Source: Patescibacteria group bacterium
Lineage (GTDB): Bacteria > Patescibacteriota > Minisyncoccia > Phycocordibacterales > UBA9973
NCBI GenBank assembly: GCA_040388575.1
Contig: JAZKBO010000003.1
Span: forward strand, 1-52,714
Direction of reading: 5' to 3'
Length of the DNA stretch: 52,714 bases
In this document: one piece after another, positions 50,511 through 52,714 of the stretch
Layout: every line of letters begins with the position of its first letter
How positions within the stretch are numbered: position 1 is the first letter of the stretch
Notes under the pieces: model-generated
The model's input: only the letters and a program-made list of their open reading frames with translations
The model's database searches: none
What the model was told of the DNA's origin: nothing
Program-made: the position numbers and the translations under genes

Positions 50511-51092
50511 ATGCAAATTCTCGGGAAAATATTGGGCAGCGAGGCCAAAGTCAAAATAATGCGCCTTTTTTTGCTCAATAAAAGCAAAGGCTTTAAAGTT
50601 GCGGAAATAGCTAAAAGGAGCAGGGTATCGCCGGAGACTGTCCGCCGGGAACTCAAGCAGCTGGCAGCTGCTAGCTTTGCTAAGAAAAAGTCGGAGGACT
50701 GGCACTTTAACCCAATATTTAAATATAGTAGGGAAATTGAAGATCTACTCATCAATACCGACACCATCGACACGGAAGGTATTGTAAATACCTTCAAAAG
50801 TTCTGGTAAGATCAAATTAGTGCTAGTTTCTGGAATTTTCATGAAAAATAAGGATAGCAGGATAGATCTCTTAGTAGTAGGGGATCAAATGAAGAAGGGT
50901 AAAATAGAGGAATCTATACGCAAGCTAGAAGCTGAGATAGGTGCAGAGCTGGTTTATGCTATTTTTGAAACAAAAGAGTTCCTGTATCGTCTAAATATGT
51001 ACGACAAACTAGTTCGAGATATTTTGGACTTCCCTCATGAGGTACTTATCCAGGGTAAAGAGTTATCCACACAAACCCTCAAAAAAGCCTAG
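50511..51092 (+). CDS. HTH + degenerate nucleotidyltransferase-fold protein (putative regulator)
   Basis: LGS..KVK..RLF, EIAKR......VRREL HTH; IDLLVVGD, LEAEIG.EL.Y. Confidence 0.6.
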   Translation: MQILGKILGSEAKVKIMRLFLLNKSKGFKVAEIAKRSRVSPETVRRELKQLAAASFAKKKSEDWHFNPIFKYSREIEDLLINTDTIDTEGIVNTFKSSGKIKLVLVSGIFMKNKDSRIDLLVVGDQMKKGKIEESIRKLEAEIGAELVYAIFETKEFLYRLNMYDKLVRDILDFPHEVLIQGKELSTQTLKKA

Positions 51093-51173
51093 AAATTGGT
51101 ATAATACTCCCATAGCACTTTATAAGGTCGAAACTTAAAAAGTTATTATTAATTAACCGTTTTTTAATTTACT

Positions 51174-51863
51174 ATGAATAATATTTGGGTCTCATGGGGT
51201 GATGTTTTCAATGCTTCACTTCAGAATTTGTGGTGGGGGTTCGTTCAATTTACTCCTAAGCTCATCGTAGCTATCGTCCTGTTCATAATCGGCTGGGTAC
51301 TAGGCAACTTGGTTGCTAAGGCTTTCGAACAAGTTTTGACCGCCCTTAAGGTGGACAAGCTTTTCCAGTCAATTGGTGCAGACAATATGCTAAGAAAGGC
51401 TGGCATCACCCTTAATTCCGGCTATTTTGTCGGACAATTGGTTAAGTGGTTCGTAATCATTGTTTTCTTACTACCATCACTCTCCCTAGTAGGGCTCAGT
51501 GAAGTAGGGGATTTCCTTCGATTCGACGTACTTGGCTTCTTGCCTAAGGTTATCGTTGCTGCTCTTGTCCTAATCATTGCTGCCATTGTTTCTGACGGTA
51601 TTTCTGCCGCAGTTTCAGCTGGAGCTAAGGGTATGGGCGTATCTTCAGCAAATATGTTTGGCACAGTTGCTAAATATGCTGTTTGGATATTTGCTTTCAT
51701 AATCGCTCTAGGCAAACTTGGCCTTCAGGATTATATGAGCACTCTTTTCACTGGAATAATCGCTATGATATCACTTGCTGGCGCTTTGGCCTTCGGCCTA
51801 GGTGGCAAGGAAGTGGCTGCCCGGTTCCTGAACAAGTTGAGCGATGAAGTTCATCATCACTAA
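51174..51863 (+). CDS. Conserved TM-helix repeat protein (MscS/CmpX-like)
   Basis: Two F.P..I.A repeats, ALAFGLGGKE.A. Confidence 0.8.
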   Translation: MNNIWVSWGDVFNASLQNLWWGFVQFTPKLIVAIVLFIIGWVLGNLVAKAFEQVLTALKVDKLFQSIGADNMLRKAGITLNSGYFVGQLVKWFVIIVFLLPSLSLVGLSEVGDFLRFDVLGFLPKVIVAALVLIIAAIVSDGISAAVSAGAKGMGVSSANMFGTVAKYAVWIFAFIIALGKLGLQDYMSTLFTGIIAMISLAGALAFGLGGKEVAARFLNKLSDEVHHH

Positions 51864-51881
51864 ATAGACTTTTAAGTTTCT

Positions 51882-51914
51882 AGAAAAAGCCCCCTAAAGT
51901 GGGGCTTTTTCTTT
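51882..51914 (+). terminator. Intrinsic terminator
   Basis: AGAAAAAGCCCC-loop-GGGGCTTTTTCT. Confidence 0.85.
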
Positions 51915-51963
51915 GCCTTTTTGTTGTCCCCAGGATATGAACAAAGCCTTGTTTTTAAAGGAT

Positions 51964-51992
51964 TTGACATCTATTTTGCTTTAGTATAGTAT
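51964..51992 (+). promoter_or_regulatory. Promoter of 23S rRNA transcript
   Basis: TTGACA-17-TAGTAT, after an upstream terminator and before the rRNA leader. Confidence 0.7.
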
Positions 51993-52004
51993 GGTTTAAT
52001 CAGT

Positions 52005-52046
52005 ATGATTATTAACAGAAACAAGCAAAAAAGGCGGCTACCTTAG
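52005..52046 (+). CDS. Putative leader peptide MIINRNKQKRRLP
   Basis: 13-codon ORF just after the predicted TSS; its last codons overlap the 5' arm of an antiterminator. Confidence 0.4.
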   Translation: MIINRNKQKRRLP

Positions 52047-52067
52047 CAGACTTTCTTTTGTCTGTAG

Positions 52068-52090
52068 GCCGCCCGAAAGGCGGTTTTTTT
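52068..52090 (+). terminator. Conditional terminator in the 23S leader
   Basis: GCCGCC-CGAAA-GGCGGT + T6; its 5' arm can instead pair with GGCGGCT at 52033-52039. Confidence 0.65.
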
Positions 52091-52255
52091 GTTGAAAATC
52101 ATACTACGTAATTTGAAAACTTAAATCTGTCGGGCATTATAGAGAGGGTCTTTTCCGCCCAGACAGGAGTAAGCTTGGTAAGTATTTGAGTCTCCAGCGG
52201 TGGGGATATAGTATTTATTGAGCTTTGTTTTGTGAATGTGGTTTTCAAATTTCTT

Positions 52256-52714
52256 AACAGGAAATTTAAGGGCGTACGGTGGATGCCTAGACTAAAAGTG
52301 GCGATGAAGGACGTAGCATAGCTGCGATAAGCTTCGGGGAGGTGTGTAGCAACCTTTGATCCGAAGATTTCCGAATGGGGAAACCCTGTTGAGTAAACCT
52401 CAACAATCTTTTACGCAAGTAAAAGGAGCATACCCTGGGAAGTGAAACATCTCAGTACCAGGAGGAATAGAAACAAATATGTATTTCCTAAGTAGCGGCG
52501 AGCGAAAAGGAAGAAGCCCAAACCGAAGTAGCAATACTTCGGGGTTGTAAGGTAACAATGTTTATTTAATTAGAGAGGAGTCAAAAAACAAATTATTAGC
52601 TTAAGTTGCTGGAAAGCAGCACCATAGAAGGTGATAGTCCCGTGAGCGAAAATAATTTGTCTCTTTTATTGTTATTCTTGAGTACCCCAGGACATGAATG
52701 GCCGGGGGGAATCC
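52256..52714 (+). rRNA. rrl: 23S rRNA, 5' portion (runs off the window; start approximate)
   Basis: TAAGGGCGTACGGTGGATGCCT, GCGATGAAGGACGT, TTTCCGAATGGGGAAACC, GAAGTGAAACATCTCAGTA, AGTAGCGGCGAGCGAA conserved 23S blocks. Confidence 0.97.

Follow-up and report, generated by a model that had tools for sequence, protein, structure and literature searches.

A probable ribosome-gated transcription attenuator ahead of a stand-alone 23S-5S rRNA unit in Patescibacteria

Transcription of ribosomal RNA (rRNA) sets the pace of ribosome synthesis and is controlled at the promoter in model bacteria. In the ribosome feedback model, reportedly put forward by Nomura and co-workers in the 1980s, surplus translational capacity lowers rRNA transcription; in Escherichia coli this feedback is held to act on initiation at the promoter through nucleoside triphosphates (NTP) and guanosine tetraphosphate (ppGpp). 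Ribosome-mediated attenuators are known from amino-acid operons (trpL, hisL, pheL, and thrL; RF00513, RF01859, and RF00506), in which a 5′ short open reading frame (ORF) precedes an intrinsic terminator, one strand of the terminator can also form part of an antiterminator, and the terminator forms when a ribosome at the stop codon masks the antiterminator arm; in pyrBI-type attenuation the ORF runs into or through the terminator. As outlined for bmrB-bmrCD (PMC4191407), mef/mel (PMC4335068), yxjB (PMC6851288), and topAI (PMC12121999), leader ORFs responding to antibiotics or translation stress control resistance or toxin genes by stalling at particular codons or peptides, and the behaviour of the ribosome on the upstream ORF decides the fold. 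The rRNA operon leaders outlined in PMC4807359 (boxB-boxA-boxC; NusB, NusE, NusA, NusG, and SuhB) make polymerase termination-resistant after boxA. Here an attenuator-like leader is described ahead of a 23S rRNA gene in a DNA stretch of 52,714 nucleotides (nt) (the window: contig JAZKBO010000003.1, positions 1 to 52,714 of the forward strand, assembly GCA_040388575.1) from a bacterium of the order Phycocordibacterales, phylum Patescibacteriota. The observation is best read as a variant form of attenuation by ribosomes, here with an rRNA gene as its target, and literature searches covering full-text search listings and abstracts turned up no paper on a translated leader ORF or an attenuator before an rRNA gene.

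All elements of the leader lie on the forward strand, about 165 nt ahead of the 23S start. The promoter (51964-51992), composed of TTGACA (51964-51969), a 17-nt spacer, and TAGTAT (51987-51992), scored 10/12 in a consensus scan and was the top-scoring site of 51000-52714; transcription would start near 51999. The leader ORF (52005-52046; ATG at 52005, TAG at 52044-52046) comprises 13 codons plus the stop (MIINRNKQKRRLP), with a 5′ untranslated region of about 6 nt, a T at position -1, and no Shine-Dalgarno (SD) sequence. Within its codons 10-12 lies the antiterminator 5′ arm, GGCGGCU (52033-52039), which is complementary to GGCCGCC (52067-52073) and was paired with it in the minimum-free-energy (MFE) fold. 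The latter segment is shared: it forms the antiterminator 3′ arm, and its bases 52069-73 double as the 5′ arm of an intrinsic-terminator-like hairpin (52069-52090; CCGCC at 52069-52073, loop CGAAA, GGCGG at 52079-52083, then U7 at 52084-52090), which was terminator-like in a sequence scan (core, -7.7 kcal/mol; extended, -10.9 kcal/mol) and begins 22 nt after the end of the ORF stop codon. Inside the antiterminator helix stands hairpin 1 (52046-52065; GCAGAC/GUCUGU, loop UUUCUUUU, -6.0 kcal/mol), with strands (G)CAGAC at 52046-52051 and GTCTG(T) at 52060-52065, its first base being the last base of the ORF stop codon. Downstream of the terminator, a block present in 14/14 genus sequences ((T)TTGAAAACTTAAA, 52112-52125) includes a conserved TTTGAAAAC at 52112-20 and is boxA-like. 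The first-pass annotation, drawn from the sequence alone, had reported the promoter, the 13-codon ORF, the GC hairpin with a T-run, and the competing pairing, and direct reading of the sequence found all of them in place; the terminator stem core begins at 52069, one position later than given there, and its hairpin and T-run stood.

Together these elements probably constitute a leader-peptide, ribosome-mediated transcription attenuator that gates the stand-alone 23S-5S unit, with translation leading to a stop and no translation to read-through. Polymerase would start near 51999, and the first approximately 47 nt of RNA would hold the whole ORF behind a very short leader. If the ORF were left unread, GGCGGCU would pair with GGCCGCC once the latter was transcribed, the resulting antiterminator helix would enclose hairpin 1 and sequester the terminator 5′ arm, and polymerase would then pass the U-run, reach the boxA-like block, and transcribe 23S-5S. 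A ribosome at the stop codon would instead cover roughly 52029-52058, where the arm could not pair; with the arm masked, CCGCC would pair with GGCGG just ahead of U7 and transcription would end at about 52088-91. Hairpin 1 may help to nucleate the antiterminator helix or to pause polymerase. As to the signal, we tentatively suggest the capacity to start translation, that is, the supply of free ribosomes, with surplus ribosomes lowering 23S-5S output. The leader peptides are unconserved, their only recurrent residues being those of the arm itself, and a free-ribosome signal would be the simplest.

In this reading, the locus would share with the amino-acid attenuators all the features listed above. 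It differs from them in having neither a run of regulatory codons nor a conserved peptide (only a K/R-R ending recurs), in its near-leaderless start without SD sequence, in its rRNA target, and in Rfam scores far below threshold. The scan of the window at gathering thresholds gave 23S rRNA as the sole match, and in the E-value scan of 51860-52270 the terminator-like matches were all sub-threshold (Phe_leader, 23.7 bits against a threshold of 55; Trp_leader, 15.6 bits against 41). It also lacks the "1:2" segment: 52033-39 had no upstream partner in the MFE fold and the free RNA folds as the antiterminator. With no upstream segment sequestering the arm, lack of translation should therefore mean read-through and not super-attenuation. 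Compared with the antibiotic and stress leaders, which are alike in that the ribosome decides the fold, the target is 23S-5S rRNA and no conserved stalling determinant is seen. The rrn leaders are alike in belonging to rRNA transcripts, and the conserved block of the present leader, in a genome that encodes NusB, may correspond to boxA; here, however, the terminator and the ORF switch precede that block. Unlike the pyrBI ORF, the present one stops short of the terminator. The idea of ribosome feedback is the same, except that it would act here directly, through leader-ORF translation and an intrinsic terminator.

The elements, their mutual exclusivity, their conservation with covariation, and the single promoter were established by sequence reading, RNA folding, and comparison. 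The 106-nt leader folded at -32.1 kcal/mol against -20.7 ± 3.2 kcal/mol for 200 shuffles (z = -3.6; 0 shuffles as good), and its MFE fold was the antiterminator closed around hairpin 1, not the terminator. The free RNA 51999-52092 likewise folded as the antiterminator (-26.2 kcal/mol), as did nascent RNA to 52078 (-20.3 kcal/mol). When 52029-58 was kept unpaired, corresponding to the stop codon in the A site, the terminator formed with 8 pairs, extending into the U-run; masking of 52030-52055, a check put forward in the first-pass annotation, also shifted the predicted fold from antiterminator to terminator, as expected. The forced terminator state lay only 2.1 kcal/mol above the antiterminator, and by these predicted energies the two folds are balanced, as a switch requires. 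A 9-bp pairing between 52003-52011 and 52097-52105 was not seen in relatives by eye and was dropped as chance.

For comparison within the genus, 212 genomes were scanned and matches were obtained in 156 (a tally that includes G076, G121, and G122, from which no leaders were taken); 97 leaders were recovered by nhmmer; 94 were distinct, 92 belonging to the genus and 2 to other families. Same-genus DNA similarity starts exactly at TTGACA, and an ATG stands at the aligned place in 92/92 distinct genus leaders, whose ORFs have 12 codons in 75 cases, 13 in 16, and 26 in 1 and encode 68 distinct peptides. The 26-codon case (L071, G092:C13; MNTTRNSLPSSRSAKAGLLPGLKRRH before the stop) carries a 42-nt in-frame insertion and retains the usual KRR ending and stop position; it was left out of the genus alignment of 90 rows. 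Only two gaps fall within the ORF in that alignment, each of 3 nt (L103 and L009); immediately past the stop, by contrast, gaps of 1-4 nt are common. Hairpin 1, whose U-rich loop is conserved in the genus, was paired in 97.8% of cells with both-side changes at 3/5 pairs, and the terminator stem was paired in 97.1%, its loop-closing pair covarying from CG to UA; taken together they gave 97.4% of cells paired, both-side changes at 4/10 pairs, and a covariation score reached by 0/500 shuffles. A run of at least 4 T follows the terminator hairpin in 90/90 sequences, with 6-7 T in most. For the antiterminator, 80% of cells were paired in the fixed register, and sliding the register lowered this to 31-45%.

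The order was sampled by 80 upstream regions, about one per family (251 genomes scanned, 203 with a 23S 5′ match), which with 13 earlier regions gave a total of 92; promoters and terminators were located with simple purpose-written scripts. A terminator-like site was present in 86/92 regions, very often as CCGC...GCGG plus a T-run, and a clear promoter-terminator pair, 55-100 nt apart, in 75/92. The order-wide promoter consensus was TTGACA-16-TATACT (mean score, 10.4/12; at least 9.5 in 68/73), and a boxA-like motif followed the terminator in 47/73 leaders. An ORF rule was applied that called for 6 or more codons, read from an ATG located 4-24 nt past the -10 element and ending 12-45 nt ahead of the terminator. 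Such an ORF was present in 69/75 order-level leaders, with a GTG or TTG start in 4 more and none in 2, against 11.7% of dinucleotide-preserving shuffles of the same stretch. These ORFs have 7 to 16 codons (mode, 12), and their stop lies mostly 24-30 nt ahead of the terminator arm. The terminator-paired arm base falls in one codon phase in 54/73, with the stop one to three codons past CGG; since this phase holds despite ORFs of 7-16 codons, changes in the ATG-to-arm length have kept the frame. No Rho RNA-binding domain was found in the genome of the window (marker completeness 100), and intrinsic terminators may therefore be its sole termination route.

The start context of the order-level ORFs showed a T at -1 in 55/73 and an SD-like 4-mer in 2/73. 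Upstream of 419 long ORFs in the genome of the window, SD-like 4-mers occurred before 11.0%, against 12.6% at random places, and the upstream sequence was A/T-rich and depleted in G, with a T at -1 in 54%. A leader ORF without SD sequence is thus normal here, because the genome shows no SD use, and its translation starts must be chosen by a non-SD rule. CCTCC was absent from the 16S 3′ ends of genus relatives (0/12 windows, 10 of them in register), and the anti-SD motif is described in PMC9297842 as lost in part of Parcubacteria. The last 40 nt of these 16S ends (L031-L040) read ...GTGGAATAATTC.

The strongest support for a real antiterminator came from a duplex test on 73 leaders, in which the last 20 nt of the ORF with the stop codon and 3 nt were paired with the terminator 5′ arm and its 8-nt flank. 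Duplexes within a lineage averaged -11.5 kcal/mol, a mean reached by 0/5000 permutations, against -8.6 kcal/mol with the arms of other lineages; the 5′ part of the ORF gave -3.7 kcal/mol, and the terminator hairpins averaged -8.0 kcal/mol. The helix is extended by lineage-own sequences, as in L012 (GGCGGAUACAC/GUGUAUCCGCU, -22.3 kcal/mol), L153 (-20.6 kcal/mol), and L195 (-19.0 kcal/mol). By sequence comparison, this own-arm preference is covariation at the level of the whole arm. The expectation that a short ORF, a terminator, and an antiterminator pairing particular to each lineage would be retained upstream of 23S in relatives was borne out in the genus and in the order, and again in the phylum.

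Sampling across the phylum took in 59 genomes, of which 7 represent further orders of the class and 52 represent further classes. A terminator-like site lay upstream of 23S in 35/59, and 17/59 had an ATG ORF (6-26 codons) ending 12-45 nt ahead of the terminator together with an arm duplex of -8 kcal/mol or better, against 25/700 (3.6%) in a control with the upstream stretch shuffled; 24/59 passed when GTG and TTG starts were allowed, which admits more chance matches. Some of these cases use quite different arm sequences (L278, -25.6 kcal/mol; L279, -20.4 kcal/mol). The layout is conserved from genus to phylum. Its occurrence differed with gene linkage: where a spacer tRNA or a 16S end stood upstream of 23S the element was found in 0/8 regions, against 24/51 of the others. 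Leader peptides from other orders or classes (L221, L223, L225, L233, L239, and L242) end in S-G (AGC GGC, stop) and not in K/R-R (AAG CGG), the same GCGG arm being read in another phase, and these endings are conserved within their groups.

Linkage in the organism itself was judged from relatives, the 16S gene being unassembled in its genome. In relatives, 16S and 23S are found on separate contigs or, where they share one, at a distance of 10-46 kb, which bears out the earlier assumption that the two genes are unlinked; because they are unlinked in relatives, the 23S-5S unit is taken to stand alone. Unlinked rRNA genes are described as common in Patescibacteria in 10.1101/705046, where the stoichiometry problem is stressed and no such mechanism is named in the excerpted text. 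As the 16S genes lack the device, a 23S attenuator would tune 50S output where the rRNA genes are unlinked. It may be, though we regard this as doubtful, that throughout much of Patescibacteria (Candidate Phyla Radiation, CPR) free ribosomes repress their own 23S-5S synthesis through a near-leaderless mini-ORF, and that the same device tunes 50S to the 30S/70S pool.

The nearest rival keeps the attenuator hardware and replaces the signal, which would be charged Arg- or Lys-tRNA, a ribosome-targeting antibiotic, or general translation stress; we consider it unlikely. The ORF ends in AGG CGG, CGG being the rarest Arg codon of the genome (8.6% of Arg codons, 3.1 per thousand), K/R-x-K/R endings are common among the leaders, and systems of this kind have been outlined (bmrCD, mef/mel, msrD, yxjB, and topAI). 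The basic codons are, however, the arm, where a stalled ribosome would mask just as a finishing one does and no discrimination would result, and the early codons, at which a stall would give read-through, are unconserved among the 68 genus peptides and unrelated across families. The same argument disposes of the +X+ stalling motif to which the first-pass annotation had drawn attention: the arm sequence AAGCGG/AGGCGG itself dictates the K/R-R ending, and the motif is needless because a ribosome halted there would mask the arm no less than one that finishes normally.

Somewhat less likely again is a switch in which the ORF is untranslated and the outcome is set purely in the RNA or by a bound protein, through polymerase speed, a Nus factor, or a free ribosomal protein. 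Support for the helices does not depend on the ORF, the two states differ little in predicted energy, the U-rich loop of hairpin 1 is conserved in the genus, and the genome encodes NusB and has the boxA-like block downstream. Such a switch leaves unexplained the ATG (92/92 in the genus and 69/75 in the order, against 11.7% of shuffles), the codon phase in 54/73, the restriction of indels to 3 nt, the T at -1 in 55/73, and the constant distance from stop to terminator.

We regard as improbable an independent micro-gene or small RNA (promoter, basic peptide of 12-13 amino acids, and terminator) acting in trans, with 23S transcribed by leak-through. The unit is self-contained and its terminator strong, and in-trans functions of an attenuator RNA and a leader peptide are on record, as outlined for Sinorhizobium trpL. 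The peptide is, however, unconserved across families, and the unit always stands ahead of 23S and is single-copy, no second leader having been found by nhmmer in the same genome (sole other match, E = 2.2). Nor does any other promoter serve 23S: between terminator and 23S the best promoter-like site averaged 7.9, against 7.95 in shuffles, and reached at least 9.5 in 3/73 (shuffles, 5.4%). With no conserved promoter in that interval, the possibility raised beforehand that the true promoter lies downstream of 52090 falls away. A conserved antiterminator, moreover, makes sense only if read-through is wanted. One site in that interval, TTGAAA-16-CATTAT (52113-52140, 9/12), was considered as a second promoter and rejected, its -10 element not being conserved in the genus and such sites occurring at shuffle level.

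The weakest rival, an ordinary rRNA leader whose hairpin is a boxB-like or 5′-protective stem before boxA and not a terminator, is suggested by the 16S leaders of genus and order, which begin with a hairpin followed by CTTTGA(A/C)AA, and is very improbable given that the hairpin of the 23S leader is followed by 4 or more T in 90/90 genus sequences and by a T-run in most of the order, and given that a terminator-like site occurs in only 7/27 order-level 16S leaders and an ORF fitting the rule (0/27) or a competing arm in none. By eye, 12 genus 16S leaders showed the 5′ hairpin and the CTTTGA(A/C)AA block, boxA-like as in the 23S leaders, and no such ORF. The hairpin of the 16S leaders (L031-L042 and L290-L319) lies at the transcript 5′ end, with the block about 20 nt later; in the genus it is followed by T4-5, which is not so in most other families.

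Several points weigh against ribosome-mediated attenuation as proposed here. Translation of the ORF, termination at the hairpin, and regulation are each steps that we infer, and the peptide sequence is conserved no further than the RNA arm dictates. The kinetics are tight: a ribosome would have to load on a leader of about 6 nt and get through 13 codons in the time that polymerase takes to make about 90 nt. Under the automatic rule 17/92 order-level regions lacked a clear promoter-terminator pair; 6 of these had no terminator-like site, and in 11 the automatic choice failed, among them L015 and L017, in which the layout is visible by eye. The ORF and terminator criteria were fixed after the genus pattern had been seen, and the sequences are kin, so that the counts overstate independence. 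In 67/92 genus leaders frame +2 is likewise free of stops across the 12 codons of the ORF (frame +1 in 0), and openness of the ORF alone is therefore weak at genus depth. The genus antiterminator is only 80% paired in fixed register, and its covariation is modest, two helix-set measures being reached by 6-7/500 shuffles. Ordinary promoter-level control is also available, as the genome has two RelA/SpoT-domain ORFs; these likewise rule out a lack of ppGpp as a rationale for the attenuator.

If attenuation by ribosomes is true, rRNA synthesis would be under a control that differs from the promoter-based kind and is very direct, in that the ribosome, as the product, gates the RNA from which it is made. 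This control would be conserved over a large and mostly uncultured part of the bacterial tree and would build the old notion of ribosome feedback into the transcript itself. It suggests how organisms with unlinked 16S and 23S keep their subunits in balance, gives a simple in vitro test of direct ribosome feedback, and defines a structured RNA element for the annotation of CPR genomes. A response of the leader to translation inhibitors, if there is one, would also be relevant to the ways in which these episymbionts cope with antibiotics of their habitat.

Contigs from public RNA libraries of two studies matched 52019/20-52098/105 (X5, 80 nt with 0 differences; X3, 86 nt with 2 differences); these contigs, which cannot show ends, strand, or level, gave no cover on 51800-52016 or 52141-52233. 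A DNA contig of X1 likewise ends at 52098. Two further blocks occupy the spacer between the boxA-like block and 23S: GGGTCTTTT (52146-52154, forward strand), which keeps GGTCTT in 14/14 genus sequences and was recognized by eye in other families, and (C/G)AGCGGT (52196-52203), which is kept across the genus.

The 23S gene begins at 52256 on the forward strand and is cut by the contig end at 52714 (445 model positions; Rfam, 311.8 bits); its remainder lies at C8:1-633 and the 5S gene at C8:1156-1262 of the same genome. No tRNA was found in the window. The PurH protein encoded in the window has close relatives labelled Candidatus Nomurabacteria, Paceibacterota, and Patescibacteria group, in keeping with the Parcubacteria named in the first-pass annotation. 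A 27-nt inverted repeat brackets the gene, with its 5′ strand at 52237-52263 and the reverse complement at C8:607-633, just past the 23S 3′ end, and presumably forms a processing stem. In relatives the two copies of this repeat are separated by about 3.6-3.9 kb, more than the length of a plain 23S. The 3′ part of 23S on C8 appears to contain additional sequence between its conserved blocks, and some relatives (G003, G025, and G027) show the 23S 5′ domain as two matching segments with 100-170 nt between them; the additional sequence and split matches are likely insertion sequences or introns as reported for CPR rRNA. On the other side of the leader, the upstream membrane-protein gene (51174-51863) carries its own terminator at 51882-51912, an example of the standard terminator of this genome (5 G-C pairs plus a T-run) that resembles the leader terminator; its symmetric form, A5-GCCCC...GGGGC-T5, could serve both strands.

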